A DNA stretch of 58,126 nucleotides, filler included, from Sphacelaria rigidula (taxonomy: Eukaryota), in the NCBI GenBank assembly GCA_964200075.2. It is 4 parts of 4 records of this genome, joined end to end, with 100 filler letters (N's around TTAATTAATTAA, not from the genome) between each part and the next. Parts side by side here need not be neighbours in the genome. Positions count along the whole stretch, not along the records: positions 1 to 14,461 come from CAXNAA020002232.1; 3 more parts are not named here. The stretch is one strand, 5' to 3'. The position numbers and the translations under genes were made by a program. Below are positions 2,325-30,401 of the stretch, piece after piece (position 1 is the first letter of the stretch; each line of letters opens with the position of its first letter). The notes beneath the pieces were generated by a model, which saw nothing but the letters and a program-made list of their open reading frames with translations, ran no database searches and was not told where the DNA came from.

Positions 2325-4235
2325 ATGTCGGGCCAGGCAATTCACATCACGGTGCCCAACAAAACGAGTTGTGTTCTGGTCGAGAACGGGTACGCTGTTC
2401 GGGAGGCCCTCAAACAACAGAGGTATCGGTACCTGCCTGACGGGGTACCAGGCGTGGTGCCGCCGTCTACGTGGGCCTTCGCCGCGTCCGATCCTGACGA
2501 CGCGAAGGAGGTCGCCCACGACTTGAAGCTATACCTTCGACGGCGATTGAAGGTCAAGGCCAAGGTGGGTCCTCTTACCATGTTATCGTATTCCACCCGT
2601 TTTGTGCGTACACGCAACGTCGTACTGTATCGTACTGAATAGGTTATGTCCTCCTCTTCTGAACTCTCCTTGTCACGACTTCACACCACACTATAAATTA
2701 TTTCAACGCCGGTACAATTCACAACCCTCATTCGTACTTTCGCAGTTTCCTGCACTATCTGTGTTGTATGCACCATCTCCCTCCTTTATTGCCTTCTCCA
2801 CCGTATTTTTATTTTTCGATTCCGCTTCCGCTGTTTTTGTCTCTCACTGTACTGCACTGTGTATTTCGTCATTCTCGACCGCACAACCGCGACGTCACTA
2901 CCCATTGAGTCAATCTCATATTTATTTCCCTCGTTTATTGCGCAGTTCATGTACTTTTTCTGCTTTTTTTTTCGCTTTTCTACGCCTTTCCTGCGCATTT
3001 GTTTCTTCTCTGCCTTTTTTTTTGGTACCTCCAATGTTAAGCGAGGGTAGTAATACCGACGGCGACCGCGTAGGGACCCCTGATCCGACTTTACTTTTCA
3101 ACAGAGCTCCCCACCTTGTCCCCGTCCCCCACCGTAGTACTGGCATGGCTTCACTTTTGATCTCATATGTGCAACATGAACGTGTAACGTGTGCGGCCCT
3201 TGAAGGAGGACGTCAGTCTGTCTGCCTGCGGGTTTTTCGCCCGGGCAAATGGCAACTCTGCGCTGTCGTCTTCGAAATCTGCGCCAATTATGGCCATTTC
3301 TCTTCAAAATCTGCTGTATCTCGGGAATCTCTGCAACATAGTTTTTACTCCTCCTGTTTTTTTCGCGCCCATAGTTCTGCACAAAAATCCTGAATTCTAC
3401 TTCTGCGGCCGCAGATGGACTCAATGACTACACGTAACCTCAAAACCTTTTAAAATTATTCGTTCAATGGGTTGCCTAATCCTCCTTTTTAATTCATCAT
3501 TTCTTTCTTTTGAAGTAGGCAAATTTAATTTTAAAAGTGTAATTATATCTTAATGTCCCTCAACTGCTTTAGCAATATATGCGCCTGCCAAAATTGAAAA
3601 AATAAATAAACAATAGTTTATGTTTTCAGTAAGTAGTCAAAATAAAAAATTAATAAGGTTCCTTATTTTGTTGAAAAACGTCCTCGAATTTGAATATAAG
3701 AATAACAATTTTATGAATATGAATTGGAAATGTTTTCGTCAACTGATTCTGTATAGCATCATCCCTTATAACTAATGTGCTTTGAATACTTGAAGTTATC
3801 ATCTTTTAATTTTAATCACCTCCTCCTCAGTTTCGCCCACGCGATTTCCTACTTCGCATGTCCTTCTCCGACCCGCTGTCCACCGCACACAAGCTAATTC
3901 TATTTCTGATTTCTCACCCGCTACACCGTTCTCTCGTACTTCCCTCTCAGGCGTTCGTCACCAAGTGTACGAAGAAGCAGCGCCGAGCTCTCGAGGAGTG
4001 CGACGTCTTCTCGCGGAAGAAACGAGACGACGTCCTCGAGTGTCTAACGTCCGACGACGAATCAGACGATCACAGCAACGAGTCCGACAACGACGACCAT
4101 ACCAACGACTACGAATCCCCGCCCAAGAAGCAGCGTGTACAAAGCAACACTATAGCCCCCGCTTGGAAGACCGGAACGCCGACTGCCTCCGTCGATTCTG
4201 TCTCCGACAGTGCAACGCTCTCGCCTGATTTGTGA
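2325..4235 (+). CDS. Two-exon gene of unknown function, about 174 aa (exons 2325-2564, 3951-4235); candidate accessory gene of the HUH element
   Basis: Exon 1 ends AAG|gtgggt (phase 0). Exon 2 follows a polypyrimidine tract, tccctctcag|GCG (phase 0). Both exons are GC-rich islands in AT/pyrimidine-rich flanks. The product has NGYAVREALKQQRYRY...TW, a basic stretch, an acidic D/S/N tract and an NLS-like PPKKQRV. Confidence 0.65.
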
Positions 4236-4410
4236 ATTATATCCATCGTTTTTATCAACGTTTATGTTTTGTTTCCATTACTATTTTCTCTTTTTTTTTA
4301 TTTTCTCCGTTTGTCATTTCTTCTGATATCTTCTTCTTTGTCTCTTCTAGTTAATGTTTCCTTCATTTTATTCTTGCATGTTTTACACTCCCAAGTAGTA
4401 CATCCTTTCC

Positions 4411-4666
4411 CACATAAAATATTTATGTACTAAATCGAAAATTCGCGTCTGCACCGCATCTCCATCACCCAATAGTTGCCTATGTTTCTCAAATTTGATC
4501 AAGAGTGTATGGCAACATGGATTTTATCCGTCTTCTTTCACATAAAGTATTTATGTACTAAATCGAAAATTCGCGTCTGCACCGCATCTCCATCACCCTA
4601 TAGTTGCCTATGTTTCTCAACTCTGATCAAGAGTGTATGGCAACATGGATTTTATCCGTCTCCTTT
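4411..4666. repeat. 128-bp tandem duplication, with a partial third copy at ~4925-4960
   Basis: cacataaa..tatttatgtactaaatcgaaaattcgcgtctgcaccgcatctccatcacc...gcaacatggattttatccgtct at 4411 and 4539. Confidence 0.9.
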
Positions 4667-5303
4667 CATATATAAGTAAAATTCCAAGCATGTGTGATAT
4701 AGCCCTAAAAATTATGGGGGGCCGCTCGTTCCGTTTTACGTTTCTTTTACTACTAATATCCTCATTTTCTTCCGGTCTGTATTTTTCTTCCTGTTTTGTA
4801 CGATTTCGTTCGGATCTCTATGGCGCTTTTCTCTCCCACTTCACATTCTCTTCATTTCTTCATTTTTATTTCATGATACCTAACCGTATTTCGTATTCCA
4901 TATCCAATTTCTTATTTATAGTATTTCGAAATAATATCGCGTCTGCACCGCGTCTCCATCAGCGAATATTTTCTCCATGTTTCCCCACTCCATCATCACC
5001 CTGTATACAGTTCTCACTTTGTACGATACGTTAATTTTCTTCTTCCTTTTTACCTTTTCCCCATCTTCCCCTCTCTGGTGCATCAATTCATAAATTCTGT
5101 AATCTTTTCCAACTTTCATCATTACTCTGTATTTATTTGCGCTCGAACACGTTATACCACTGGGGAAAACACCAATTACTACAAGAAAGAACAACGAGCG
5201 CATAGCTTTTATGACGCCTAACTTTACCTTAACTTGTGGGTTTTGAGCTTGTAATTTAATTGTAATTAAAATAAGTAATCAATTCATTAAAGATTGTTTG
5301 AGA

Positions 5304-5803
5304 ATGGATGATTGGATTTTATTTTCCGGGCAAGGGAAATACAATAGGATGGATGATTGGATTGGATTTTTTGGATTTATATTGCTAACCACTACACGCC
5401 ATACAAACGTCATTCCGATTAACGAAATTGTGAGGTCCTGAGTGAAAAAAAAGTATAACATATTATATATTTATTCAACTATTTAAATAATTTATTACTT
5501 GAACATTGTTTGAGGATGGATGGTTGGATTTCATTTTTTGGTCAAGGCAAAGACAATAGATACGAATAAATTATGAGTATATAAAATGAATAAATTATTA
5601 TATATTTTAGGATGCATGGTTGGATTTTACTTTTTGGACAAGGGGAAGACAATTTTCTTTTTCATGAGTTAAGGGCAATAATCTCTTTCCAGGTATCAGT
5701 ACAATATTAGATCAAATGAAGAAATGATATATTTTAGGATGGACGGTTGGATTTTACTTTTTGGACAAGAGGAAGATTTATTTTTTGGACAAGGGGAATA
5801 CAC
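5304..5803. repeat. Cluster of ~45-bp ggatgNNNNNttggatttt..ttttggacaagggg motifs upstream of the HUH gene
   Basis: Copies at ~5304, 5347 (partial), 5513, 5608, 5736 and 5776 (partial). Confidence 0.85.
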
Positions 5804-6045
5804 TGTTTTCGCGACTTTAATTTTTTATTTAGTACTCATTCCTCCTACATAACCTCAGATATTATCTCATGTTCTCATTGTTTATTCTTATTCTTTTCTA
5901 AAACTTGTTCCTTTTCCCCCCGTCAACGCCATTCTCTCCTTCCTCTCTAGCGCGTCGGGCGTCGCCCACGACATTCACGACGGCGTCTCCACCTCGTAAC
6001 CCCGCACATGCCGGAGGAGTCACCCCGTCGCCGCACCCTGCGGCC

Positions 6046-8172
6046 ATGGTGGGTTCTACGGGTACGACTGACGACCAGCCTGCGCCTTCACTTGCGCCCG
6101 ATGGGCCTACGCGCACGGGGCGGTCGCGTGGTCGTCGTCCCCGCGTCTCTACTGCCGAGGATCCCGTCCGGACATCTACCGCCACCGCACCATCCTCTCC
6201 ACTCGCCGGTCAACCGCGACGCCGCGGACGCCCCCGCATCGCCGCCGTCTCCGACGGCGTCACCTCCAATCGCTCCGCCCCCTCCATTCGTACCGCCTCA
6301 GCTATCCCCTCCGGCTCCGACGGCGTCACCTCCAGTCGCACCACCCCCTCCATTCGTACCACCTCAGCTATCCCCTCCGGTTCCGACAGCGCTATGTTCG
6401 CTTCATCCACCGCTGCCAGCGCCGCCAATTCCGGCCGCCCTGCCGGCGCCTCCCCTCGCCCCGCTGCCTCCGACGCCAGGGGTGCCGATGCTTCCTCGGC
6501 CGAACCCCGCACGGCCGGCGACGTCAGCGGTACCTGCCCTCGCTCCGCTACCGACCCTTCCATCCCCTGGCCGCGGCCTCGCGGTCGTCCGCGGCGTCAG
6601 CCATCTCCGGTCCGCCTCTGCCCCCGCACCGGTGACGTCATCGACAACATCATCAATTCCGGAACAGGGAATTCTGTGGACTTCTCTCTGACGATAGCAT
6701 CCCGCGACGCGGGGAACATACCCGCCACCGTTTTCGATGACGCGGCGCACTTCTTCGAGAAGAAGGCGACGCGCGGGTTAGTTAGTCTCGAGCGGGGGGG
6801 GGGGCAAAAGGCGAACCTACACGTCCAGGGGAGTCTTACATTGGGAATCGTGAAGGCCTACGACGATGATAAGAAGATGAACACGGACGTACGTAACAAC
6901 TTGAAGACGTTCGAGAGTTGGGGACCTGATCTACGACTCAAGATTGACGTCAAGCCTCTCGGTGCCAAGCAGTCTTTTGAAGGCAAGTTCTTTTTCTCTT
7001 CGTAGCCTTCCAATTTTATTTCCTTCTTTAAATATCACTAACGCATTATTTCCCACTCTCGTTTCTTACTTGCAGATATTTCTTACAATTCTTCCTCCCT
7101 TTCTTCCGACCCTCACCTCTCCCTCCTGCATTGCGCATCGTACTGTACGCCTTCACTCCCGACCCTTTCCTTCCTCCTATCTTCTTTCCCGTCCATTACC
7201 TCACATCGCTCTTCCCTTTCCGTCGCTCCTTTCTCCATGTGCGCCTTCTATATCCCTCCAGCTAAGGTCGGCTACTGCTCCAAGGATGTCGGGAGAGGCC
7301 ATTTCCGGACCGCGACTATGAACGTGTCACGCACGGAGATTAACGTCGCTCTCGCCGAGTACCGGAAGCTGCAGCATCAGGTCGTGAAGGACGTGCGCCT
7401 CGAACTCGGCAAGAAAAATTTCTGGTGTTGCGTCCGACGCTTTCGGGAGGAATTCTTGCGTCCACTCACACCTTCTCCTGTGGCCATCCTCACGTGGATG
7501 GTCCAAGATGGGGAGTATCTCCCCAGCTCCTCCTGGATTTGTCCCACGAGCGCCCATCCTATGGAAGCGTTGAGGGCCGAAGCTTACTTCGTCGCTCTCG
7601 TGTGCCCCTCCCTTTTCCGACGAGAACATGCGTACACCCTCTTTTTCTCCGGCGGTTCCGGTGGGCGAGTCAACGAGAGTTTCGCTCTTTGGGACCATCA
7701 AGACGCGGAATGGATCGAGCTCACGTGCGATCAGGCTAAGGTCCACGCCGGACGCCGCGCGGAGGTCGCCGATGCCGTCGACGCCGTACGCGATTTAAGG
7801 AACCGCCGCCGAGCTTCCGCCGCCGTCGCCGACCTCCGCATGCCAGGCGTGCCTAACTTCCCCGTTGGCCCGGACAGCGATTCGGACGACGGTGTTCAGC
7901 CGGCCTGCCGCCCTTCCGCTCCAACTCCTACTTTCCGTAACGCTCCTGGAGCACCGGACGACGGCACCGAAGACCTCCCGCTTTTGGTTCATTCTTCTTG
8001 CTCCGAGCCTCGCTGTGTTACAGGTGGCTGTATCGGCATGGTACCGTGTGCCGGTTCTTGCGACGGCTTACTCCACCCAACTTGCGGCCTGTCCGCTTCT
8101 ACCGACGACTCCCGGCGGACGTGCTCTTTGTGTGCTGGTGTCACTCTTGGCAAGCGTCGTAGCCGTACGTAG
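6046..8172 (+). CDS. Replitron-type HUH (Y1) endonuclease/transposase, about 615 aa, 2 exons (6046-6982, 7262-8172), with AT-hooks and a C-terminal PHD-like finger
   Basis: Joining GAA G|gcaagt (GC donor at 6983) to ccctccag|CT AAG (acceptor AG 7260-7261) fuses ORFs 5905-7005 and 7237-8172 in frame. The product has motif I DFSLTI (6679), motif II ERGGGQKANLHVQG (HUQ, His at 6820) and motif III QSFEAKVGYCSKD (Tyr at 7273). These are followed by G.GHF....NVS..EI and M..DGEYLP...W...RA...P...FF blocks that match my recollection of the Replitron consensus. There is no helicase Walker A. The start at gccATGg 6046 is inferred. No internal stops. Confidence 0.88.
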
Positions 8173-8479
8173 CTGCCTCTGCATTCTTCGATTGATTGTG
8201 ATTGCTTCTCCTTTTCTTTTGTGTATTTCGTTTTTTCCCCGGGTGTCTGTCCTTCCTACGGCATTGCAGTAGCCCTTTTCGCGTCGTACTTTCCTTCTTT
8301 CCCCGTACAGTGCAATACGAGTTGCGCCGTTATGGTTACCATTTGTGTGTCAGTATCCTTTCCACTGTCTTTTTAATGATCTTTCCTCTCAGCATTTTTC
8401 CCGCGTGTTCCAAAAGGGTTAAGTAGTCCAATTGACGCCATTAGGGTGGAGAGATCACGGGTTCGATTTCACGCCAGAT

Positions 8480-8560
8480 GAGCAATGCTACGGTAGGAGT
8501 GCACCTTTTGCGCGATATCTTGTCTAGTCCAGGGGTTCCTAACGCTTCCAGATGCACAAC
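8480..8560. mobile_element. Truncated end of the GAGCAATGCTACGGTAGG MITE family
   Basis: Aligns with 13820-13900; no second TIR is present. Confidence 0.7.
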
Positions 8561-8573
8561 AATGGATTTTTGG

Positions 8574-8884
8574 AGGATGCATGGTTCGATTTGGGGGGGG
8601 GGGCAAGGGAAACACAGTCGCTCAACTTCGATACTATATATTTTATATTATTTTTTGTTTATTTTTGTTTTCTTTTGACTTTAATTTTGATTTTGATTTT
8701 GATTTTAATTTTAATTTTAATTCAACAAACTGGTCTATTAATTAATTGATAGATTGACCAAAGATGGATTTTTTTTGGGACAAGGGGACGACATTTTACA
8801 TAACATATTAATGATTACAAAGGGATAATTAATTCACAGATTGATTAAGATGGATTATATTTTTTGGACAAGGGGAAGACAATA
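8574..8884. repeat. Second cluster of the same motif downstream of the HUH gene, same orientation
   Basis: Copies at ~8574, 8763 and 8849 (gatggattatattttttggacaaggggaagacaata). Confidence 0.8.
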
Positions 8885-10117
8885 AATCCTTCGTTTTACG
8901 GCATACATTATTCGCCATGTGTGTTAACCTTTCGTGCCAGATGCACCTCGTCTGGTTTCGCCGTTACGGACGTCCTCGGACATCGTGCAATATTTGTCGT
9001 TGTGTATCTCAAGTCCTGCGTAGGGTAGGTACCCTACACTACGGTGTTTCTTTTGATGTTAACGGTTTGTTTTATCGACCTCGTGCCATTCGTCTCTCGT
9101 CGTCTTCCGATGGTGTGCCCTGTGTATTTCCTGTCGGTCTCGCGGGAGGTTCATACGACCACCTCTTCCAACTAATCTGTTGCGTTTATATGCTTTCTTC
9201 CTTTCTTGGCGGCGGTCATTCGTTTTAAGTTCATCGCTTGTTCGGGTTGGCATTTTTTTTTCTTGTATGTTTATACTTCACATGTACGATTTCCCATGCC
9301 TACATGTTCGTGTTACGATTTTTCCTGTAGTTTGCTTCTCTTCTGTACCGTACTCACCTTATTTTGGTGTTTTCGATGCTTAATTAAAATCAACTGGGTC
9401 TGTCAGTTGCGTGAGTCCTTTTCTTGCTTTTGGGGGGAAATATCTCCGTGCCATCGTCATATTGTTCCTTTATTGTTGTTTTTCCTCTCAGTCCCCCTCT
9501 CGGTTCCGTCCACTACCTACTCCTCGGATTACCGACATACATACGGAAAACGACTACCTACTCCTCCGATTACAGATATGGATCCGGCAATCGCCACTCC
9601 GCGTCGTGTCTTCATTTCTTCCTCCATGACATCTTATATAAAAAAAAAATCATGCCGGGCTCTTCCGTCTTCTATTTCTCTCGCATTTTCCCCAGAATAT
9701 CGAGTCAACTTATTATGTCGTTCGTTCCCTTCTTTACCAATTTGTTCACGTGGCACCTTATTGTTAGGTTCGTCGCTCCTTCCTCTTTTTCCCTTCTCAC
9801 TATTATTGTGAAAGATATATGCACCGCATTTCGGTCCTTCCTTTGTACTGCACTATAATTATTCCACAATTTCATGCATAAGTGAATGTACGTACTATGA
9901 AGGCGGTGTGCCTCATCAACCTCGTCTCCTCCATTTCATGCGCACGGAACCAGCCCCACAGAATTTTGTCCTCAGCCGCGGTGCAACCTGTGGTTTCCAT
10001 ACCCCGTTTCACCTCTTTCTCACGACTTGGCGTTCCTAATTTTACATGTGGTTTCCGACGGATTCCGTCATACCTGCCCAATCCCCGCGATCTCTGTTAA
10101 TTTTTTGTCATCACTCC

Positions 10118-10370
10118 CGACACTTTCTACGATAGCCCCCCCCCCCCGAAACCAGCTCAACGTGTCACGAAAACGTTGGCCATGCAGCGCCTGATGTTCG
10201 GGTTCAGGCTGCATGAAGCGCCTCATATTGGCGACATCGGCTAGAACGAACCCCAGCGCGGAACTCCACAGCTTCTCATTGTGCTCGGCTTTTCCCATTT
10301 CGATTTACGTGAAGTTTTTACCTCCCAAAACCATGCACTTTTGGGGGGGGGGCTATCGTAGAAAGTGTCG
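10118..10370. mobile_element. MITE, about 253 bp
   Basis: TIRs cgacactttctacgatagccccc / gggggctatcgtagaaagtgtcg. A partial reverse-complement copy of its left end is at 14562-14641. No clear TSD unless the terminal CG is the duplication. Confidence 0.85.
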
Positions 10371-12440
10371 GGGGGAGATTGCTGCAACTGCTGTACGTTC
10401 AGCTAATCGCCCAACGCATAGTGGCATCGATGGTGAAATTCCCCATCATCTTATGTTCCGAAAACATGCCAAATTATCATTTTGCGTAAAGTCGGCTCGC
10501 CTGCTTTTCTACACGTAGAATGTCATATTAAAAAGTTGGAGAAAAGACATGGAAAGGTGTCCTAGTAGGCTATGACTCTGATAGTTCGTCTTATAATATA
10601 AATAATGGAGAAACTGGTCGAGCTGTGAGTTCGCGAAATGATACCTTCATAAAACAAGCAGCCGCCAAAGCCATCTCCAGTGATACACGGGCTACATGGA
10701 GAGAAAACAGGGATTAAGATAACATTTTCGAACTTCTAAATGATGAACAGAAGGGAAATTTTCATTTTAACAACGATGTATACGACGGAATTTCTCAATT
10801 GGAGCATTCATCTACAGAGCGGACTACACCAACACAACTTCGTTCTACAGGTAGCCCAGATCAAGCTACATCTCAACCATCAAACACACGCCAAGCCGTT
10901 TTTAGGCTGGCCCAGCTCGTACCTGCATCCTTTCTAGTTTCAACCACGTACAAACAGGCGTTATCTTCACCGTATGCGACAAAGTGGAAAGTTGCCGTGC
11001 TATGTGAACTACAAAGCATTTCGGACCATAAGTTGGCAGACACTATTCCATCAAGTTTGATACCTCTAAACAACAACATAATTGGTACGCGTTAGGTGTA
11101 CAAAGTCAAAGCCGGTGGAAGATACAAGGCCCGCTTAGTTTTCCAAGTTTGGGTACATGAGCTTGGATTCGGCTGTAGGAGTACCTTCGCGCCTATATGT
11201 AGACCGGAAAGTCAAAATATTTATTAGCAATAGCTAAAGCTAAAAGTTGACCTATAGTTGCCCTAGATATACAGGCCTCATTTTTAAACGGCAAATTACA
11301 AGAACCCGTATTCTGTAAACAGCCACCTGGATTCGAAACATCAGACCCAGATACTGGTCAACGACATGTGATGCGTCTTCGCCGTGCCCTGTACGGACTT
11401 CGACAAAGTCCCAATGTGTGAAATTTTGCAATCGACACTGAATTATAAAACGAGGGTTTCAAGTCAACCACAAGTGATCCGTGTGTATGTACGAGAGGAC
11501 AGTAAGGAGATTATGCCATGGTCACTTTGTTCGTTGATGATATCCTAGTTACAGGACCATCCCTCGAAAGTTTACAGAATGTACAAGATACTCTCAAAAC
11601 GAAACTTTCAATATCAGAGTTTGGACCTGTTTCACTTATTTTAGGTACGGAGGTCATCAGAGATTCTGGAAGAGGATTTCTAAAACTTTCTCAGTAAAAA
11701 TAGGTACTAAAGTCACTACAAACGTTCAAAATGGAATCCTGCAATACAGTACATACACCAGGTGAAGCAAATCAACACATAAAGGGACCAGAAGAAATCT
11801 TCTGGATCAAGAGCAGACGAAACAATACCAAGCAATGGTGGTAGTCTTATTTTTCTAGCACAATGCACCAGATTCGACATAGCTTTTAGTGTTACTCAGG
11901 CAGCTCGTCACATGAGTAGACCAAGTGTTCATCATTAAGCTGTAGTAAAGCGTGTATTTCAATCCTTAAAAGGAATACCGGATCTATCACTTACCACTTT
12001 TCGAAGAAGAACTTGAATCTACAAGGATATTGTGATTCTTCATACCGTATCTCCGGCTGACGGGGTAGAATAAGGTCAACTACGGGAACTATGTTCTTTT
12101 TAGCTAACGGATTAGTTCACTTTTCTTCAAGCCTGCAGAAAATTGCAGCTTCTTTAACTACTGAGGTAAAACTCGTATGCTTAGCCAGATGTGACACATT
12201 TGGGATGTATCTGTCAAGATTCCTACGTAAACTCGGTTGGTTATAGATGAAAACACCCACTATTTGCTCAGACTCTCTAGGAGCATTGAAATTGTCATCA
12301 AATTCTTCGTATGGCACAAGTCGCAAACACCTAGCTATAATATTTATAATCTCAGATATATTAGAAGAGGAGATGAAAAAATAATCAATCATGTGAAGTC
12401 AGAAGGTTGACTTGCTGACATACTCACGAAATATTGCGAG
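10371..12440 (+). pseudogene. Decayed Ty1/Copia pol (integrase C-terminus, RT, RNase H)
   Basis: Recognisable motifs in Copia order: GEIAATAV..ANR, GYDSDSSSY, TYKQAL, YKVKAGGRYKARLV, LDIQASFLNG, ALYGLRQSP, SDPCV, LFVDDILV, TRFDIAF, GYCDS, LADILTKY. There are many stops and frameshifts, and no LTRs were seen. Confidence 0.93.
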
Positions 12441-12476
12441 AAAATAATACACTCTTATGGTAGGTAGAAAACTTTA

Positions 12477-12741
12477 TGTCTGCCGGAGAGTGTGTTTTTA
12501 CGCAGGAGAGTTTTATCATCCATTTGCGTATACTCCTGTATACACAGTCATATTTGGTTTCGATAAATATATGGAAATAGGTTCCAGGAAGTGTGCTGGT
12601 AAGAAATATGTTATTTTCACAAACACACACCCTGGAATCTATTTCCATATATTTATCAAACCAAATATGACTGTGTATACAGGATTATACGCAAACGGAT
12701 AATAAAACTCTCCTGCGTAAAAACACACTCTCCGGCAGACA
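12477..12741. mobile_element. Fold-back MITE with TA flanks (Tc1/mariner-type)
   Basis: Near-perfect palindrome TA|tgtctgccggagagtgtgtttttacgcagg ... cctgcgtaaaaacacactctccggcagaca|TA with arms over 100 bp. Confidence 0.88.
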
Positions 12742-13335
12742 TATCCACGCAAGCATATGTATATATTACCACCAAGTTACTATATTTAGATCACTACGAT
12801 GTATACTCGTACCAAATATCGGTGGTATGTTCAATGGTGATAAGTTTACTTTATATACTATAGCTACATGAATCCCGTTTAGAAACATAACATCAGATTC
12901 ATCGCTATCTTCAGTATACCGCACAGACTGTCAGTTGTATAGTTGTACCGTAGTACAGTACAACAGTATGCAGCACTTCCAATCAACGGACAAGGCCGCA
13001 TCGTGATGATTTTTCAACGTGTCACCCACAAGGGTGGTGCAAGAAGTCATGACCCCTAACGGAATAGCAATATAGCCAGGTGTAGTACTGCTTGTGCTTT
13101 GTAGACTACGAATCATTCACACCGTCTTCTTACAGCTGAAGCTGGCAAAAATGAGGAACTGCACCCAAAGCAACGGCGTGTATCCGCCGAGCATTCGAAT
13201 CTTCACTCAGCGCAACCAAGCGAATGCTGATACCGTGGCAGCGTCAGGGAATTCTTTTGATTACGATGCAAAGCGTTTCTACTTCGTTAATGGTACATTG
13301 TGATGAGTATGACAGTTGAGATGGATGTCCCACTT

Positions 13336-13620
13336 TGTTTTTACGCAGAAGAGTTTTACCATCTGTTTGCGTATACTCCTGTGTACACAGTCATATTTGG
13401 TTTCAAGTACATATATGGAGATAGTTTCCAGGGGGTGCGTTAGTAAGAATAACAGATTCCTCGCTAACGTCCCCCCTGGAAACTATCTCCATATCATTAT
13501 TGAAACCAAACATGATTGTGTTCACAGGATATCGCAAACGGATGACAGCACACAGTCATGTTTGATTTCGATGAAGGCATGGATGAAAATAGTTTTCAGT
13601 GGGGTGTTCGTAAAAAATCC
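13336..13620. mobile_element. Diverged, truncated copies of the same fold-back MITE
   Basis: tgtttttacgcagaagagtttt...cacagtcatatttggtttc with a partial inverted arm to ~13545, then another partial arm. Confidence 0.75.
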
Positions 13621-13819
13621 ATTTCATATCTGAAAACGAGTTCCGCTGTAGGATAAGTCACGGTTCAGCATGAACAGCAAACTAAGTAGAAGGTAAAACA
13701 GACAGTAGGAACGGGTTTAACCGTAGGGTAGATAAATGGACAGATCGAACTGTTGGTGTCAAAATAGTGAAGAGCTTGAGTCGAAGAGTCTAGAGTATCA
13801 AGAGTTTGTGCATGTATAG

Positions 13820-14074
13820 GAGCAATGCAACGGTAGGGGTGCACTTTTTGCGCACAATGCCGTCTGGTTCAAGGGCTCCTAAAGATTCTAGTTGCACGAG
13901 AAAACGAGTCAGGGCATCCCCGTTTACAAATTCATTCGGGATATTCCTAGTACATTGGAATAATAATCCTGCCGTACTCTCACATATTTCGTAAGTCGTG
14001 TTTTTGATCAGAAAAAGGCCTTGAACAATTCTAACCTCGCAACATATTTGTGCACCCCTACCGTAGCATCAGTC
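13820..14074. mobile_element. MITE, 255 bp, with 4-bp TSD (ATAG); Sola-like
   Basis: atag|gagcaatgcaacggtaggggtgcac ... gtgcacccctaccgtagcatcagtc|atag. The superfamily is inferred from the GAG terminus plus 4-bp TSD. Confidence 0.75.
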
Positions 14075-14461
14075 ATAGTTCAAGTCGTACAGTTCAGGTA
14101 CAAAAGGTTTTGTTGAGATAGGACACTTTCTTCAGACAGCCATTTGTGGCCACTCTCTATTTTTTCTCCTCTCAACCAAGCCTCTCAGATTGTTGTTGGT
14201 TTCTACGTTCATGAGGAACCAAGCGTTTTATTGTGTTGATTCTGTTTTCGACCAAGTGAAGCACCAACTGTCAACCCTCTTCCTGTCTTTTATTGCACAA
14301 ACAAGTGTTTGATCAGCACTGTGCGACCTCTGCGAGCTCTTTCGTCAGAGCTGGGTTCACGAGCTGAACCGATCGTTCCTGTGAAGTTGACAGTCTAACA
14401 CTAACAACAAATTGTGAGAATTGAGGTTTAACTTCGAGATGAGGCTCAAGCCTAAAACAGT

Positions 14462-14561
14462 NNNNNNNNNNNNNNNNNNNNNNNNNNNNNNNNNNNNNNN
14501 NNNNNTTAATTAATTAANNNNNNNNNNNNNNNNNNNNNNNNNNNNNNNNNNNNNNNNNNNN
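14462..14561. other. Artificial contig spacer
   Basis: N44-TTAATTAATTAA-N44; the linker puts stops in all six frames. Confidence 0.97.
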
Positions 14562-14844
14562 CGAACATCAGGCGCTGTATGGCCATTGTTTTCGTGACGC
14601 TTTTAGCTGGTTTTGGGGGGAGGCTATCGTAGAAAGTGTCGTACGCGGACCACCGTGCCCGTCGAGAAAATCAGAACGTATCATTTGCACCTCGGAACAG
14701 ACGCCGCCTTTCCACTCTTCCCGCAATTTTTTATCGAAAATGTCAACACTCGCGATGAACGTAAATGGAGGAAGACGATGCCATATGTTTTGAGTACGTG
14801 CAATATTTTAACATCAAGAGTATTAAAAAGTATTCAACACTATA

Positions 14845-15282
14845 TTCATGAGATTCAGAGTGTAACATCGGATTCAGAGTGAGACCCGAAACAAAGGACT
14901 TTCCCGTCGATTTTGACATCCCCACAGTCGAGGAGTAATGCGCCCAGCTGGTGAAGCGGTGGCTTCAATGAAAGCTGTCACCTACACGACCAATTTGACA
15001 CATCACTTGGCCGCAACGACGTAGTCAGTTCACTGTAACAAAAGATCCCCTCTTTCAGGAAAAACCGATTAGTGCCTGAAACAGTTTCAGGCCGAAATGC
15101 CCCCCCCAGGCGTAAAAATGCTCTGTGCGGTATCTCACCAACCAGACCGCCGAATTCCTCGAATGGGGTACTGTACGGTAGCTGCATGCACAGGACGTGT
15201 GCTCAAGCAAGGAAAAAAGTTGCCTGTTAGGAACGCTAGAGCATCCACTCTGAATCCGATATTACGCTCTGAATCTCACGAA
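14845..15282. mobile_element. MITE, about 440 bp, TA-flanked
   Basis: TIRs of ~37 bp: ttcatgagattcagagtgtaacatcggattcagagtg / cactctgaatccgatattacgctctgaatctcacgaa. Confidence 0.75.
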
Positions 15283-18200
15283 TATGTTGTTCTTTCAACT
15301 TCCAGCGGCGTTTCCCAATGGTTTCTTCGTGGAAGAAGTCGTTTGAGACACCCCCCGTACGTATAATCTCGTAGAACACACTAGGAACAGTTCCGAGAAT
15401 GCTACCGACAAACCTTTGCGAGGGCTCCAGGGAGAAGCACGTGCTAGAAATACGGCCAAGAGAGAAGATCGTTCATTAGCCATCAGGAGGCCGCGCTAGT
15501 TGGCAGGGACAATCAACTATCACCTCGGAAAAAATCATATACACATCGATCGTACGTATCATGTATTCACGCGCTCTCTCGATATTTCCACTCATGGATC
15601 GGGCGACACGAAAGAGAAAATCGTGTGGTGAAATACGAATGATACGAATATGAGCGGTATGAATCATGATGACGCTTCATCTGCTCTGCGGTTCGTGAAA
15701 ACGTGTGGGACAAGTACATTGTTCCGCACCCCACACGCGCTGTTTGTGCGATACGAGTTCCCAGAAGGCACAGTTTGCCGGTGTCTGATTTCCGCGGGAT
15801 AGATTCTGGGAATTGTGATTCTGTTGTCCAATCTGTGTGCCGCAATACTTGCACTTTTTACCGCAAGTATGGTTTCTTGAGTCGCTCGTAAATTTTCTTA
15901 AACGCCCGTGCGAATTACGTGAGATACAAATGACGAGTTGGCAGTTAACCCTTAGACAACAACCCCCCCCGCAGGTGCACTGATATGTACTATGCCACAT
16001 TTGGAGTTCAGGGCAGATCTATTCTCGCTACACAAGACGCATTTGTTTTTAATCATGTGGATGCTGTGCATCTGCATGGAAAACAGTCTCGGAGAACCCC
16101 TGACCGGTTTTGACCGTGCCGTGTATAGCGTGCAGCCCAAGTTGTGTATGCGGTACCGCGGGATACAACGGCAAGAGACAGTCAGCGTGCCATCGCTCTC
16201 CACTGAACGCAATTTGCTGCATGCATACTGCTGATGCCTCTGCTTAGTGTTCCACAACAACACAACAGACAGTGTGAAGACATGCTGGTAATAAACACAT
16301 GAGGGGTCAGACGGGTGGCGCAGACCACCAACAGAGTACAGAACTCGTATTTTGTGTTCATGTTATTTATGGTTGAATTACCATGACAAAATGATAAATA
16401 CCGCTAGACAGCGAAGTATTCCACCTGTCGTCCACCTGCGGGGGAACTGCGTGCTCATTTTGACAGCCGGGATCGGTCAGAATGGTCGTTCCGCGTCTCT
16501 CGGGCTTCGTTTCTGGCTTTGAATCTTCCGCATGAAACTTCCAAAGACACACGGCTGACTTGGTGAGCGTCTCGGTTGCTCTCCAGACAGAACCCCTCTC
16601 CCACCCCCCACCCCCTCAAAAACCACCCCCCAGAGACATTCAGGAGTTTCCCGTGGCCAGGGGTGTAGACATGCATGATCATGAGTACACCCCTGGTCAC
16701 TGGAAACCCCTGGATGTATCCGGACTGTCAGCGTGTGAAACTGTTTCGAGGCGACGCTCGCTGTCTGAGGGTTAAGCATCAAGAAGGTGATATGCTGTAT
16801 GTGTCATCTATGCTGAAACTGGCAGTTCTACGCTTCCGTCCGAGTCTCGATGATTCTCAATTTTCGCATACGCCAACCCACGGTAGCGGGTGAATCGTAG
16901 TCTAAGCACTGGGATTCACGACTGTAGTGTACACCGACACACTCCCGTGTGTCCATGTCGCGGGATACCGAGTTGTCATCCAGCAACCAAAATGTCGCGA
17001 AACATCATCATCGAGAAAAAGTCTGAGTATTCTTTACTGCGTGGAGCGACTCCCAAAGCGACTAAGCTTTTCAGATAACAATTTGGTCGAAACAATCCTC
17101 TTCATGGCGTGCGGCGGATCAAACGTTGACTTCGGAAGACAAGGCTTCCCGCTGTCCAGACGGGTGAGGCAGCAGCATCGACCCTCAAGCTGGCGTAGAG
17201 GCCGCGACATGAGATGGATCGCTTCGGATTGTACTGGCACGGGGTCGTATGTACCTTCTTCGTTTGAATGAAGGAAGCGTTCAAACGACATTCAAGCAGC
17301 TGACTCACAGCGACGCCTATAAGGGAACCCGCCAAGTGCCATTCACCCGGTTTGAAGCACGAATCTCATTTTACATTTGTTTCTGGGACTCTGTCGTTTC
17401 CTCTCTTTTTCTGTCATCACGTGCTCCTTTCCTGCTTAGCGTCATACGTTGGCGTTTATCTGGCTGCTACAATTTTCCAGCATCGAACGAAGCATGGCCC
17501 TCCAACATCACTGAAACCAGAAATGTTCAGACTCGATTGGCCTGGAACCAAATGCGCAAGCACGAGCCCTACGATTCCACTAAATACGTTTTCACTACCC
17601 CGCATGCCCTGTATTCGGCGCTGTGGGAAGTAAAGCTGGACAGAGGCCAAATCGAGCTTTGTGTAATGAACGACTTCGCCCAACGTTTTTGTCGTGCTTT
17701 CACTCTCCCCTACAAACGACAGCTATCTACTTCCGGTGCCCAAGGCTTCAAGTCTCCTCTTTCCTGATGCGTGCCTGACGAACGTTTTGGGCATTGGATG
17801 AGCCCTCCTGCGCCCGTCAATTTAATTCAGGACCAACTCCTCACGCTTTCGAATGACGGATTTTAGTGAACATATCATCGCCTTCTGGATTCGTAATAAC
17901 AAAGCTCGCATAAAACTGGTCGTACATGGACAGTTGGTGCGCCACCTCGATACTCGTAGCGCGACCCTAGCGACAAAAATTGGCAAGACCTCCCAGGATT
18001 CCTTCGCCGTGGGGGGAACGTGAACGTTTGTCCACGCACCCTTGAGAGGACCGGGTACAGCAACCGGTAGAGGCGTCTCGTATCACAAAAAATGGCACAG
18101 CAGTATCACAAAGCAACTGCTCTTTTTTCTGACTCCTTTCTGTCTCGCCATACTTCCGACCTCTGCTATTCCCCGGGGTGACTCCGTACTCTCGAGAGAT

Positions 18201-18939
18201 CACAACTCATTGCCTCCCGATACGTGCTTGACATCTTCGCGTCACAGATTGGATCAACACTCCCTCACTGTATCGGTTATCGCCAAATCCCTTTGCTTCT
18301 CACATCCCCACCTTTTCAGCAACGAAAATCAGATACCCGAAACCAAAAAAACGCACATAACTGTATCTGCTTCAAATCGAACCCCGAAGCCTCCCCTACT
18401 CGGGGTTGCGATGTGCCCGTCTAACCACCGGGCCGCGGCGTGTATATCCTTTGATGATCGGTTGATTTATTGCCGTACACATTCACTGATTCTCGAGAGA
18501 TCTAACGGTGGTCATCATTCACACGGTAGGAGTACCCAAGGCGAACACAACGGAAGCACTATATAGTCGAAAATCATGCTTTCTGGGGGGAACAAGGGAC
18601 GTTGTGACCCCGTGGGGAGGGGGCGCGTCACCCACTTACTATTACTTTCAGGAGGTGTTTTCAACCATCGAGGCTGGAGACACTACCAGTACGTTTATTG
18701 CAGACCTTCCTCAACCACATCCAAGACACAAGGTGGTCACCAGTGTGTTTTACCCTCTGATGTTTCATGAGCGGGGTTTCCAGGTTGTGTCCGTTTCCTT
18801 CAAGCATCAACGGAACAATGAAATTCCACCCCTTGTTTAGCTGCCGTCGGCTACCTCAACGCCGTAAATTGTGGATACCACCACATAGAAGGGACAAGTT
18901 TCCACAAGTATCTTCTACAAAGGAGTCATATTTTCACAT

Positions 18940-19010
18940 TGGCGACACCATTTGATAGCTCGTACGCTTCACGAACAGAAGGTCTCGGGTTCAAATCCCG
19001 GATCCCACCG
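18940..19010 (+). repeat. tRNA-derived (SINE-head-like) remnant
   Basis: T-arm cggg-ttcaaat-cccg with B-box GGTTCAAATCC, but no complete cloverleaf. It lies between two copies of a ~70-bp repeat (~18870 and ~19229). Confidence 0.4.
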
Positions 19011-19669
19011 AAATGGTGGCAGCCAAAATGGTGGCAGCCAAAAGGAAATGGTGGATACTCTATGAAGCGGAGTTCAAAAGCTCACGGGAAATTTCCTGCG
19101 GTGATTGTTGGCTGAGAGATCCAACACACGTAGAAGATATGTGAATTAAAAGGCAAAATTCCAACCGCTAGCCGGCGTGAAAGGTTACTCCTGGAGACCC
19201 TCCAAGAAGCTCATGAAAGGGGGGCTGATGTGGAAACCGCCACATAGAAGGGGTAAATTCCCACAAGTGTTTGTCAAGGAATCACCTTTTCACAATATTG
19301 CTCTCGACGGGCCAGTTTCCACTGTGTATTCGACCGATATATCCACAAAGTCGTTGATGCTCTTCGGATGCCCAAAGCCCCTCGTCGAAACGTCGCTTCG
19401 AGATGTGCTTCCAACACCTAAGCTGTGACGAAGCTCTGATTTGTCTTAGGTGTGCCCGAGTCGTGAAGTATCGCAAACTACTCCACTTGGAATGTAGCTA
19501 TCGATCGGACATCCAAACCTTCCAGATTTCGTTTTGTTTTTCATCGCACTCTCCATCCCTTCTCTTCCGCGGGACACGTACGTCCACGACTTTACAAGCG
19601 GTCCAATTCATCTCCCCCCCCCGGTATCTATGCGTATGCGTATTGTTTTTTTATCGTTTTTCAACTTAG

Positions 19670-22600
19670 GTTCAATCGGTTCTGGATGATTTCCTCGGAA
19701 ACGATGGGAGAGGTCCCGACATTAGTATCGGTACGTCGCCGAAAAGCGCGTCTTCTCCGACGTCCTCTCCCGCTAGGGTCGGCAAGCGTCGTTCTCCCAC
19801 CAGGGACAGTGGTGTCGGAGGTGAGTCGAGAAGATGACCAGATGCAGGAAAAGCGAGTATATTTCCAGCTATCTGTTTCCATAGGTATTCCCAACGGATC
19901 AACACACGTCTCCCCTGGTACAGTGCCTGCCTTGTCCTCCATGATCAGGAATTGGATTGGCACAGGAGGGTCACTTGAACGGCGGTTCTGATACTATTAT
20001 CCCACATGCTTCTGAGACAAAATGTGGTTGTGGCCATCTGTCGAGGTTTGGTCTCATGTGTGGAATAACGTTGTTGAATCCTGGAAAAACAAAACGTTAG
20101 GCGGACAGAGACGGTCGTCACATGCGCAGTATGCAGAAGGACCCTCCTCCCCCAGGACGCCTGTCGGTGGTGGCGGCAGACAAAGTTCTCTGACATTAAT
20201 TACGGATCAAAGCAGCGGAGCGGGAGGATTGACCTCTCCTTCTGCCGGATATTCTCCTTCGTCTGGTGATAGTAGATTGAGGTACGTGAATGTTCTCCCA
20301 AGACAGGTACCTGACTTCCCGGGGTCCTTGCAATGAAAATATTATTATCCAGGGTGTCCTGGATTTTCGGAGTGCATGCAGACACCCGGAGTATTGCCGG
20401 ATACCTGAGGAGTCGACTGCAAAACCACCATACTAATCATATCCGAAGCACTTGAAGTGTTGAGCCGCACCCGTCTCTACCCTATGGTAAGTCTTGGTGC
20501 GCAATCGTGTAGTCATCTGGCATGTGAGAACCAGCCGCCCAATGTTTTTACGGATAAGTGCTCATGCGACGCAATCAACAAGTACCGCTTCTACGGGTGC
20601 GAGCGATAATGCCGTTTCTGTGGCACATTTTATCCGGCAGGCAGTAGGGTTTACACGACTTGTCGTGGTGAGATCGCAGTTGGAAACTACTTGATTTCAG
20701 AGGATGACTGTCGAATTCAGATCTTTGAAGGGCGGGTAGTCCCGAGTGCTCACATTTTCGCAGGACGCATATTCTGCTACAGTGGACATCTAAGTCGCCG
20801 ATTTGACCTCCATGAACACAAGGTTTGCCTAGCGCACAGGGCACCATGTGCATATCCCCCACCGAGGGTTCTCTACATGGCTTGGATTGAGGTTTTGGTT
20901 ATGGTTAGGGTAAGGCTCGAAATTATATCTAGAACACGAGTGATGAAAGTCAACTCGTGAGTAATTTCTGCAATCGTTTGTGTCTGGGTCTGATTTTTGC
21001 TCGTGTTTGGCGTTCAAAGCATGCATCAGGCTTGTAATGTTAGAACGCGTGTTCTCCGTTGATCAACCGTGTCTGGTGTGAACATTGAAAACGTTTTCCG
21101 ATCTGTTTTTCAAACGTTTCATTGACATGTGGACCGCTGGAGGTACGTAAACGATATGAACATGGCCCGGTTAAGGCTTTCTCCTTCTTTCTTCCCGATT
21201 CAACAAGACCTGGCTGGGAAATAGTTTCCTAGCTCATTTTTTGAAACGAACCACATCCTCAAGAAGCGCAGAGCCAATTTTAGGTTCCTTCGGCTGATAA
21301 AGCGGACTGAAATGACTCACGTCTTTTAAAAACAATATCCTGCGGTGTTTCGAACAGTGCTATCCATAGTCGGTGCGTCGTTGAAAAAAACGCGCCAAGA
21401 CGCACACGATTGGATTGAATCGCTTCTTGGACTTCATTCCAATCAGCGAGCGTTCCCGTTTGGTCTACCTTGCGCGCGTCTAGATTGCAACCGCGGCTGG
21501 ATCTCTTCGAGACCGCTTGATGCACGACAATCAGTCAAACCAGCACATTTACACAATCACACGCACAAGATGAGCCAAACCTCATCATTTCTTCATGCTG
21601 TTTCGCTCCTTCCATTATAATCTCCGGTCGTCTACTCCACATACCTCGTTTGTCTTTTCAGGCGGCGGGTATCGGTGCGGTCTCCGAAGATGGTGGGAGA
21701 CACCTTGCAAATCGCCGAACTATCCACCCTGGGAAATCTCCAGGTGTTTCTGGACGGAAAACAGAAAGAAGTGGCTCAGGCGCACGCACGAAGGACAAAG
21801 GAGTTAGAGGTGGTGCTGGCGAAAGAGGAACAATATTTCAACGCGCTGCTGGAGTGAGTGCATCCAAGTTGCTCACTCGACAGTTGGATTGTGTCAATTT
21901 TTCTTGTGCCTCTTTCGAGGACCTTGTTTGACGTACGATTCACGCTATTCCCTTGAAGCCTAATACTTGTTTGGGACTGTTGTTGTCCATTGTGCAGGAT
22001 TTCGTGTACGACTAGACAAAACAGGACCTACCCTCAATATGGGCTGGCGACATGGCATGGCTCAGACGTGAACTTTTACTTTCGGTATGATTCTACATCC
22101 ATGCTGATAGATGGTACGCTATCGTCAGCAAACATGCCCGGCATACATGAAACAACAAGAATAACTCTACCGCAGGCAAGTAACACGAGGGTACTGCCAT
22201 CTCAGCGATCGAGGAAGCAACAACGCAGCACCGTCGAGCAACACGCCGATACGGTGATATGATACCCAATAAGCAGTCTACTTGCAGTCGCACTCGCACC
22301 AAACGTGGGCAGTTTCTCACGAACCATTTTGTGTCTTTGATGTAAAGTTCGAACGTTGCAAGGGTGGTTGGATAGCGTACGAGACTACATACATTAGTGC
22401 ATTCCTAAAAACCGTTATTCAAGTGCCCGAACCTTGAGTAGAGTATTGCGATCGTACTCAACAATACCCAGACATGGGCTGAAGTATTGCAATCGTACTT
22501 AGCTCTACCCCAGTATTTGCGTATAATTTGAAGATTGGGCCATAGTAACACGAAGTTCGGGAGAGTAAATGCCCGGGTATTTACTCCACCCAACACACCT

Positions 22601-23127
22601 TCGGAAGGTTGGCTTCTTCAACACCTCGAGAGCTAATGGAACATCTCAAACGTGCTTTGAGGGAGGTCACATCAGCAACATCCTCCTTCTCAAAAAAATC
22701 GGCAGGAATACTAAATTTGCACATTCCGACTTGCTTCCGACTCGAGTAAGAGCTCCGGTCTGTACTTACGATCGGCATCATGTGTATTCGTCTTTTTCCA
22801 GAGTGCTGAACGAAAAAGATAAAGACTGTACCGCCGACGAGAGCAAGTATGTATGGACAGGTACCATGTAAGTACATCTTGTTTCGTCATACTTTCAATC
22901 CCTTCCACTTTCGATGGGAACGAGCCCACACCTCTCCCTGTACCCGAATAAAATTTGTTTCTCCAGGACTAAATCATAGGTGCCGCAGCTCGTAGTTTCC
23001 CATCTATTATTTCTTTGCTTCTCGAGTCCTCACTGTGGCAACGAAAGAGACTATGATCACAGCTGTTGAGACTCGGATGCACGGATTCTGACGAACTAAT
23101 TCGGTCATCAGGGAGCGGCGCCTACTA

Positions 23128-23179
<52 letters not shown>

Positions 23180-28857: not shown

Positions 28858-29018
28858 GTATGATGAAGGTGTCGTTGACGTCGTTTGGTTGTGGTAATGC
28901 CCAAATGGAAACGACCAGTTGTTCACGAAATCGCGTGACTGGAGAGATCTACTGTACCATGATTCTAGGATTTGGGGGAGGGGGGGGCGGAGGGGGGGGG
29001 GTACTCATTCGTTGCTTG

Positions 29019-29118
29019 NNNNNNNNNNNNNNNNNNNNNNNNNNNNNNNNNNNNNNNNNNNNTTAATTAATTAANNNNNNNNNNNNNNNNNNNNNNNNNN
29101 NNNNNNNNNNNNNNNNNN
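29019..29118. other. Artificial contig spacer
   Basis: Same 100-bp N/TTAATTAATTAA/N linker. Confidence 0.97.
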
Positions 29119-30401
29119 CAACACCTTTGACACAAGTACCCCACGTTTGTGCCAGGCGATCTTCATGGTAAACCATCCAGGCGCACGGGGGGGGGGGGAG
29201 TAGGTTGCATCAATAGAACAGAACATAGTGTTGATCACAGAAATCTGTAGTGTTCGGGGTGGTGAATAATCGACAGTTATTATTAGACGGTACATCTGCG
29301 ACAAAGGCTTGTAGATGCACCCTTTTTCGCAAGCAGTCGTGCCGAGGAGGCCCAAGACACACGACAAAGAATGTGCTGTGAGAACGTGGGTTGAACCATC
29401 GCAATCCTGCGCACGTCCGGCAGATCATGATCCGTCTGAAAATTACTTCCTCTCCGTATACTTATCTGGATCATGATCTGGATCACATAACCCCATTTTC
29501 CATGTTTGTTCCTTCCAGCGCCGGACGCTGAGCACGCCGAGTATCGCAAAAGGTTGCGCTTTGGCTTTTCTGACTCCGCGGTCACCTATTTTGTGTCTTT
29601 GGACCAACGGATTCTAAAGCGTTGTTTGATCTGTTGTTTCAGACAGAGCATGATCTGTCCGACGTTGGCAGCCTTGTGACATCAACGCATCCGCACGAGA
29701 GCACAGCCGTGAGCATTGCTGTGTTTTCCGTCAGCGCTCAAATCCCTCGTCATGTACTGTACGAAAAACTGCATTTTACTGCTGGCTGCTCTATGCTCTC
29801 ACAAGCACACCCCCAGCATGAGATCTGCCGCGTACTTCTCGTACTGCCCAGTAACCTATTGGAATACGGACGGTAAGATCAAATAGTATCTCAGCCGCGT
29901 TGTACTCAAGAGAACAAATTATTCACGTGGCTTGACTATCGCCCTTGTGCTAGACCAAGTCGTTTAATCGTACGGGCCAACATACGAGCACGTCATATGC
30001 TTGCCTTCGGAACATTAAGTTGGTAAGAAGACTATTACATGCCACCAGAGGAGGGGCACGCGCGTATCTCTGATGTTACTGTGTTGCATGTTGGGTTTTC
30101 TACCACTGGTCTGATTACAAGGGCGAGAATGAAGGAAACGAAGTTAGTGCTGTAGCGCACCACCCCCTCGGACAGTGTCGATTGAAACGATTCCCCGTCC
30201 CTCAATTAGCAATTCGCTGTGATGTTGATCGGATACTGACGTGTACGGATACCCAGAGGATATTGGCATCTCGAAGTCGATGGCTACAATTTCCGGTAGG
30301 ACAACACGGAATTGTCATTGATGGCATCTCTGCTATAGTGCTGAATCAGTCGTTCTTATCAGCACACGGGCATGTTCATACTCTCGCCCGTTGTCTCTAA
30401 G

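Follow-up and report, generated by a model that had tools for sequence, protein, structure and literature searches.

The replication proteins (Reps) of CRESS-DNA viruses, the RepHel proteins of Helitrons and the transposases of Replitrons are the described systems with which the gene reported here is best compared. In CRESS Reps the nuclease is joined by an oligomerisation domain and an SF3 helicase, and the origin at which they act is a stem-loop carrying a nonanucleotide; Helitron RepHel proteins have two catalytic tyrosines (Y2) and a fused Pif1-type helicase. Replitrons, as set out in the main text of their description (Craig 2023, PMC10288648), are eukaryotic copy-and-paste DNA transposons of 2-4 kb that have been reported from brown algae; transposase genes with introns, copy numbers that are low in algae and short direct repeats at the termini are described for them, and their transposases have a motif I of the SUTU type, a conserved Glu, an HUQ motif and a GYxxK motif with a single catalytic tyrosine (Y1). 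We analysed a stretch of 58,126 nucleotides from the genome assembly GCA_964200075.2 of the brown alga Sphacelaria rigidula, made up of four parts joined end to end (hereafter the window, meaning the whole stretch), and found in it a locus that is very probably a Replitron transposase gene, encoding a helicase-less Y1 Rep HUH endonuclease.

The gene is divided between two open reading frames (ORFs) on the + strand that share frame 1, ORF1 at 5902-7005 and ORF2 at 7042-8172. Its first in-frame ATG lies at 6046 and its stop codon, TAG, at 8170-8172. A preliminary description of this DNA had proposed that position 6982 is spliced to position 7262, giving a stop-free protein of ~615 aa, and joining these positions indeed yields a stop-free frame of 615 codons. 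The intron thus removed begins with GCAAGT, ends with a pyrimidine tract and CAG, holds two in-frame stops (TAG at 7003-7005 and TAA at 7039-7041) and has a G+C content of 46%, compared with 61-65% in the exons.

This splice is backed in three independent ways: by the abutting halves of a Pfam match (see below), by identity to a public protein and by contigs from sequencing runs. The spliced translation equals, letter for letter, a 615-aa protein recorded at NCBI as 'unnamed protein product [Sphacelaria rigidula]' (P0002), which uses the identical exon junction. The record confirms the brown-algal origin of the DNA; it also already carries the Replitron domain PF21859, so that the gene was not hidden, as had been supposed. 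Contigs with the splice were found in all three of runs X1, X4 and X8, which represent one organism and two studies. They join 6980 directly to 7260, a joint that equals 6982/7262 because AG stands at both sides. Depth in the intron bin was 2.09, 0 and 0.5 in these runs, respectively, as compared with ~20, 10 and 5 over the exons. In X9, a DNA-like run, a contig (record 27) runs unspliced through the acceptor (7087-7315).

A Pfam search of the spliced protein gave a match to Replitron_HUH (PF21859) of 83.4 bits (E 2.2e-23; cut-off 28.5) that is contiguous over profile positions 1-128. Searched alone, exon 1 scored 30.4 bits over profile positions 1-92 and exon 2 scored 35.5 bits over 96-128. 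Each exceeds the gathering score by itself, with matches to adjoining parts of the profile; the two-exon match exceeds chance. The only other families at E<=1 were Replitron_C, below its cut-off, and a weak zinc finger, with no viral Rep, Helitron or helicase family among them, nor was a Walker A pattern found in the spliced protein. These results uphold the earlier assignment to a Replitron-type HUH protein without a helicase.

The motifs DFSLTI, ERGG, HVQ and GYCSKD stand in the translation where they had been described (Table 1). Tyr317 (7273-7275) is the only Tyr within residues 305-330 and is predicted to be the single catalytic Tyr, in agreement with the preliminary description. We aligned 87 proteins (alignment A1: the query, the Ectocarpus protein P0003 and 85 of 150 matches listed, picked for covering the conserved region or the termini). 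Eight residues are near-invariant in A1 (>=90%), and all are kept here: E249, G251, H259, Q261, G316, Y317, K320 and D321. They correspond to the conserved Glu/HUQ/GYxxK signature given for Replitrons in the main text of PMC10288648. The protein thus resembles Replitron-1 of Chlamydomonas reinhardtii and the Replitron group as described there in its SUTU motif, Glu, HUQ and GYxxK, and in length, the group's proteins being ~600-660 aa. With the Helitron RepHel proteins it shares the character of a eukaryotic HUH transposase and, presumably, the copy-and-paste logic, but it has one motif III Tyr, no helicase and no match to a Helitron family at E<=1.

The structure predicted by AlphaFold2 from A1 had a pLDDT >90 for roughly residues 205-510, and places the motifs on beta-1, beta-3 and alpha-3. 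This placement and the order of secondary-structure elements agree with those of Replitron-1, as far as given in the main text of its description. An exhaustive VIA-align search of 48,161 chains returned CRESS-virus Rep nuclease domains as its top six matches, with 7kii best (Z 9.6, rmsd 2.8 A over 96 residues), followed by 8h56 (Z 8.9), 2hw0 (Z 8.3), 6h8o (Z 8.2), 9pqf (Z 8.0) and 9pqq (Z 7.6); RepB of pMV158 came after these (Z 7.1). The model therefore supports the HUH fold that had been anticipated for this region. CRESS Reps of circoviruses (7kii, 8h56, 2hw0), a nanovirus (6h8o) and a vientovirus (9pqf) are the closest solved nuclease folds (Z 9.6-8.0), with 12-17% sequence identity to the present protein in the structural alignments. 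CRESS Reps also have a single Tyr, and circoviruses also have HUQ.

The nature of these structural matches, together with the HUQ and YCSK-type motifs, would suit an endogenous viral element, i.e., a Rep gene fragment from an integrated CRESS-DNA virus or plasmid. We consider this extremely improbable. Unlike CRESS Reps, the protein has no SF3 helicase (Pfam at E<=1) and no Walker A, and its nuclease domain is followed by a helical domain and a putative zinc finger; Viral_Rep gave no match, versus the high score for Replitron_HUH; and the gene is interrupted by a spliceosomal intron that is apparently common to its relatives. No capsid ORF was seen and there is no NANTATTAC-type origin near the gene: the CRESS-type nonanucleotide ANTATTAC had 5 matches in the window, compared with 4.6 expected, none within 10 kb of the gene.

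On the C-terminal side of its nuclease domain, the Replitron-like protein is modelled as helical, then as a disordered linker leading to a small finger; the N-terminal ~200 residues are low in complexity and modelled as disordered. Residues 1-164 and 517-615 are largely of low confidence, with pLDDT <50 across most of 1-164. The N-terminal region holds three RGRP/GRRP cores, at residues 29, 60 and 179, which are AT-hook-like and may be AT-hooks. At the C-terminus, C559, C564, C575, C579, H584, C587, C600 and C603 are candidate zinc ligands. The pattern C-x4-C-x10-C-x2/3-C-x4-H-x2-C-xn-C-x2-C followed by a basic tail occurs in 8/8 sequences of a second alignment (A3, 8 sequences), two of them without one Cys each. 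The ligand spacing fits C4HC3 except in the first pair, which is C-x4-C. Pfam matches to PHD, Znf_SCAND3 and zf_VAL1_N were weak and all under their cut-offs. A second AlphaFold2 model, of exon 2, had a pLDDT of 66-84 across the finger, for which fold searches gave weak matches to FYVE/PHD/RING-type fingers (Z 3.9-2.4), and the A3 profile had a sole match in the PDB, the C1-like domain of 1v5n (E 0.037). 'PHD-like zinc finger' is thus a reasonable but unproven, putative label. PDB sequence searches returned nothing meaningful for exon 1 or exon 2, and Foldseek against the PDB with the exon 2 model gave nothing at E<=1e-3.

Table 1 Coordinates of features at the Sphacelaria rigidula Replitron locus, as positions along the window (a slash marks a splice point).
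Feature	Position	Strand	Remarks
Upstream cluster, 4-5 copies of ~45-nt direct repeat, consensus AGGATGGATGGTTGGATTTTATTTTTTGGACAAGGGGAAGACAAT	5289-5807	+	candidate left subterminal region
Exon 1 (ATG to donor)	6046-6982	+	residues 1-312 and first base of codon 313
AT-hook-like core (R-G-R-P / G-R-R-P), one of three at residues 29, 60, 179	6223-6234	+	second RGRP at 6580-6591
Tandem duplication, 66 nt (22 aa), in disordered N-terminal region	6238-6369	+	repeat family D7, 89% identity
Replitron HUH endonuclease domain, residues 212-347, intron-interrupted	6679-7365	+	PF21859; CRESS Rep structural matches
Motif I DFSLTI (SUTU type), on beta-1	6679-6696	+
Glu249 of LERGG, candidate third metal ligand, end of beta-2	6790-6792	+	>=90% conserved in A1
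11-G run in coding sequence (Gly251-253), site of 10-nt loss	6794-6804	+	X8, X9 contigs
Motif II HVQ (HUQ variant of HUH), on beta-3	6820-6828	+	H259, Q261 >=90% conserved in A1
Intron, 279 nt, GC..AG, phase 1	6983-7261	+	donor AG/GCAAGT, acceptor CCCTCCAG/C
Exon 2	7262-8172	+	residues 313-615 and stop TAG
Motif III GYCSKD, on helix alpha-3	7270-7287	+	G316, Y317, K320, D321 >=90% conserved in A1
Domain 2 core, helical, Replitron_C-like, residues 372-441	7438-7647	+	helices on to ~residue 503
C-terminal Cys/His cluster, PHD-like C4HC3 spacing, then basic GKRRSRT tail	7999-8133	+	alignment A3
High-depth repeat segment just 3' of stop codon	8340-8556	.	run depth
Downstream cluster, 3 copies of ~45-nt repeat, same orientation	8562-8886	+	candidate right subterminal region

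We searched for relatives with HMMER among 1.84 billion representative proteins and found 280 at E<=1e-3, of which 78 reached E<=1e-10 and 12 reached E<=1e-30, with an identity to most family members of only about 20-30%. Three Ectocarpus proteins (P0003, P0011 and P0154, each an 'unnamed protein product' at NCBI) are Replitron-like, with an HUH domain 56-59% identical to that of S. rigidula and the same motifs. P0003 has a Replitron_HUH score of 92.7 bits and an RGRP core. The Ectocarpus proteins differ in their N-terminal regions, which cannot be aligned with the present one, and the gene model of P0003 ends soon after the HUH domain. Within S. rigidula, another contig encodes P0155 (88% identity over 338 aa), and a third encodes both P0159 (70%) and P0010 (65%); all three proteins are partial. 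Three protein-coding loci at 65-100% identity, this gene included, were found in the species, and the presence of at least two further loci encoding relatives fits a multicopy mobile family. A protein scan of JGI metagenome contigs confirmed no close relative, and tblastn within the window found only the gene itself. A tblastn match at 45515-45802 (E 0.13) was rejected as a second copy, being non-collinear and full of stops.

The relatives also bear on the position of the intron. Among the matches listed, at least seven start at a conserved Met before GY (M-V/T-G-Y...), aligned to residue 315, and at least five more have unalignable residues with pyrimidine-rich codons just upstream of that point. 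Several others continue with non-homologous residues, often 'GK...' or 'GE...', directly after the QSF/QTF that ends exon 1, and P0014 and P0016 are contiguous across the exon junction. Since breaks of these kinds match ORF-level gene calls over an intron at the same place, the position of the intron is likely to be conserved in the relatives, judging from these protein sequences.

Several points weigh against reading the locus as the transposase gene of a Replitron. Replitron_C (PF21860) reached 22.1-23.3 bits, under its cut-off of 27; it gave 55.1 bits on the relative P0028, and AlphaFold2 predicted confident helices at the place expected for domain 2, for which a fold search returned no convincing match (best Z 4.4). 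According to the note that accompanies VIA-align, Z values of 7-8 are commonly reached as a best score. Those of the nuclease domain are only modestly above this level, yet the top matches are uniformly CRESS Rep domains, in keeping with the relationship of Replitrons to CRESS Reps that has been published. Foldseek against the PDB gave no match at E<=1e-3, the best being the DNA-binding domain of papillomavirus E1 (1.5e-3). That the gene is transcribed is read from the missing intron, X1, X4 and X8 being labelled only '?' or 'RNA? (a guess)', and the flank at 4000-5650 is covered at a depth like that of the exons. P0002 is the sole member of its 90%-identity cluster, with no second near-identical copy found. 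Contigs of X8 and X9 have lost 10 nt at the 11-G run and share a G>T change at 6833, whereas X1 and X4 are without the loss. After it, the next stop is at 6851-6853 and the product would be without HVQ and Tyr317, which suggests that some individuals or copies have a broken gene or can dispense with it. The run is one Gly codon longer here than in the paralogue P0155. Finally, no termini of an element, target site or empty site emerged from the analysis. In favour of function are the intact frame, the full set of conserved residues and the spliced form in three runs.

These observations also bear on whether the gene could be a domesticated one, i.e., a Replitron-derived Rep kept for a cellular function, inherited vertically and situated outside any transposon. 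Relatives at 39-81% identity keep the whole architecture (the N-terminal region from ~residue 80, HUH, domain 2 and the putative zinc finger), the intron position is apparently conserved, run contigs contain the gene in spliced form, and X9 also has the whole locus with its flanks, with small differences, all as such a gene would have it. However, the species has several diverged, partial paralogues, and X8 and X9 carry the truncating allele or copy; taken together, several diverged copies and an allele that can be dispensed with speak against domestication as a single-copy host gene. In addition, none of the residues that only DNA cleavage requires has been lost and the setting of the gene is gene-poor and repeat-rich, with no credible Pfam match in 66 other ORFs and a decayed copia reverse transcriptase 3 kb away. 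Intron-bearing transposase genes have, moreover, been described for Replitrons themselves in the main text of PMC10288648. We thus find domestication quite improbable.

The same diverged copies and dispensable allele argue against a recent burst, and the suggestion that this is a young, possibly active Replitron was not substantiated, given partial relatives at 88% and ~65-70% identity and the 10-nt loss in X8 and X9. The locus may instead be a stranded or ageing copy: an open, transcribed Replitron gene that is no longer mobile, belonging to an old family, with its ends lost or disrupted and with the flanking ~45-nt repeats being an unrelated array. We hold this to be possible but not probable. 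The divergence and partial state of the nearest same-species relatives, the single-member cluster of P0002, the frame-breaking loss and the high-copy repeat in the 3' UTR (8340-8556) all favour it; the intact 615-codon frame with 8/8 near-invariant residues kept and the spliced form in three runs speak against it.

The repeats that flank the gene cut both ways. Clusters of a ~45-nt direct repeat lie on either side (Table 1), always on the + strand, about 3.2-3.6 kb apart, beside the gene only and nowhere else in the 58-kb window. The 18-nt core of the unit had 6 matches in the window, compared with 0.07 expected, and the best pair (5621-5653 and 8851-8883, 3.2 kb apart) is 94% identical over 33 nt. 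This restriction to the gene's sides is at odds with a stranded copy. However, the unit is abundant elsewhere: summed depth in X9 over several bins that hold it was ~ten-fold to several hundred-fold above the ~120 of the coding region, and contigs with different flanking sequence begin to match at 5505 and cease to match at 8884. The raised depth and these contigs indicate that the unit is repeated elsewhere in the genome, as would suit a stranded copy, and insertion into an existing array also leaves repeats in the same orientation on both sides. The ~45-nt units may be repeats from the subterminal regions of the Replitron and non-autonomous relatives, or they may form a pre-existing array that the element entered. 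An exact 22-nt scan for the repeat core in JGI metagenome contigs gave 0 matches, and the sole short hairpins near the candidate ends were nondescript AT-rich palindromes, 9-15 nt in length.

Contig joints of 5522-5530 to 8851-8860 were considered as empty sites or deletion derivatives and rejected, their sides being 20-30 nt long and inside the repeat unit; they are most simply explained as other copies of the unit aligned half to each of two copies. A microsatellite-like tract of TTTTGA/TTTTAA units lies at 8680-8720, and reads appeared cut at 8636-8729.

The segment between the stop codon and the downstream cluster, 8340-8556, is covered at a depth of ~3,000 in X1 (~20 nearby) and ~100,000 in X9 (~120 nearby), and is probably a separate interspersed repeat within the 3' UTR. 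It holds a GGTTCGATTT stretch that resembles a tRNA T-arm and may be SINE-like. There was no tRNA (ARAGORN) and no Rfam match in this segment, nor any across the window.

More widely, 66 of the 90 window ORFs of >=110 aa were scanned with Pfam, the others being excluded for overlap with the gene (10) or with another ORF on the list (14), and none had a credible match. A Pfam scan with X at stops, over one 1.5-kb stretch, revealed a decayed Ty1/copia reverse transcriptase at ~11215-11763 (+, frame 1; ~11.2-11.8 kb), which matched RVT_2 at 121 bits and whose frame is broken by several stops; it is apparently followed by RNase H-like sequence. It was claimed earlier that every other transposable-element protein in the window is decayed. 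Within the 66 ORFs and the 1.5-kb stretch scanned, this is confirmed for one example, the copia reverse transcriptase.

Other repeats lie nearby. An inverted repeat with two perfectly matching 30-nt arms, at 10116-10145 and 10343-10372, encloses 197 nt, and each arm ends in a run of 10 C or G. Its summed bin depth is ~10,000-30,000 in X1/X4/X8 and ~550,000-750,000 in X9, many contigs diverge where it begins and ends, and it has the appearance of a foldback or MITE-type repeat of very high abundance. The segment 9345-10117 has a depth of ~180-190 in X4 and X8 and 39-145 in X1, compared with ~5-20 for the gene, and is single-copy-like in X9. Contigs of X4/X8/X1 over this segment differ from the window at ~4-6% of positions and its ORFs had no Pfam match; it may be a transcribed paralogous repeat. 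Upstream of the gene, a 128-nt unit is duplicated in tandem at 4411-4666 (96% identity), with a third, partial copy at 4937-4971, 366 nt downstream. Runs of 10-11 G or C recur at the locus (6794-6804, 8593-8603, 10136-10145 and 10343-10352).

If the protein acts as the Replitron family and HUH enzymology would lead one to expect, Glu249, His259 and Gln261 would hold a divalent metal, and Tyr317 would nick single-stranded DNA at the end of the element and become covalently linked to the 5' phosphate. Helical domain 2 would gather two or more monomers so that a second Tyr could perform strand transfer, and the single strand would be supplied by host replication or a host helicase. More speculatively, the AT-hook-like RGRP cores at the N-terminus might attach to the AT-rich flanks and the PHD-like zinc finger at the C-terminus to chromatin, and the ~45-nt repeats at 5289-5807 and 8562-8886 might be subterminal binding sites of an element of ~3.3-3.6 kb. 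It is an unlikely idea that the repeats are iteron-like binding sites for this Rep and hence functional subterminal regions in a brown-algal lineage of Replitrons, that their extra genomic copies are non-autonomous derivatives which this protein mobilises, and that the finger and AT-hooks were gained in this lineage for DNA or chromatin targeting.

The gene model, the Replitron family and its presence in brown algae are already public, and the find is correct, fairly ordinary and modest. In a full-text search of the Replitron literature, judged by titles and abstract openings, no paper on Sphacelaria was found among those listed. What the locus may add to existing knowledge is an intron position that is apparently conserved, together with the finger at the C-terminus and the clusters of repeats on either side of the gene. 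A conserved C-terminal PHD-like finger and RGRP cores set the present protein apart from the Replitron group as presented in the main text of PMC10288648, where 'zinc' occurs once, in a figure legend of domain symbols, and 'PHD' never. The ~45-nt repeat clusters likewise contrast with the short terminal direct repeats reported there for Replitron families. If the repeats are indeed iteron-like and the finger and AT-hooks were gained, they would amount to an end architecture and a targeting module undescribed for Replitrons.

The definition of Replitrons dates only from 2023, and knowledge of their mechanism comes mostly from a single active element, Replitron-1 of Chlamydomonas. An intact, apparently expressed brown-algal copy would offer a second, distant system in which to study helicase-less Y1 Rep movement, the ends of the element and the role of the putative zinc finger, and its nuclease domain could be tried as an HUH tag.

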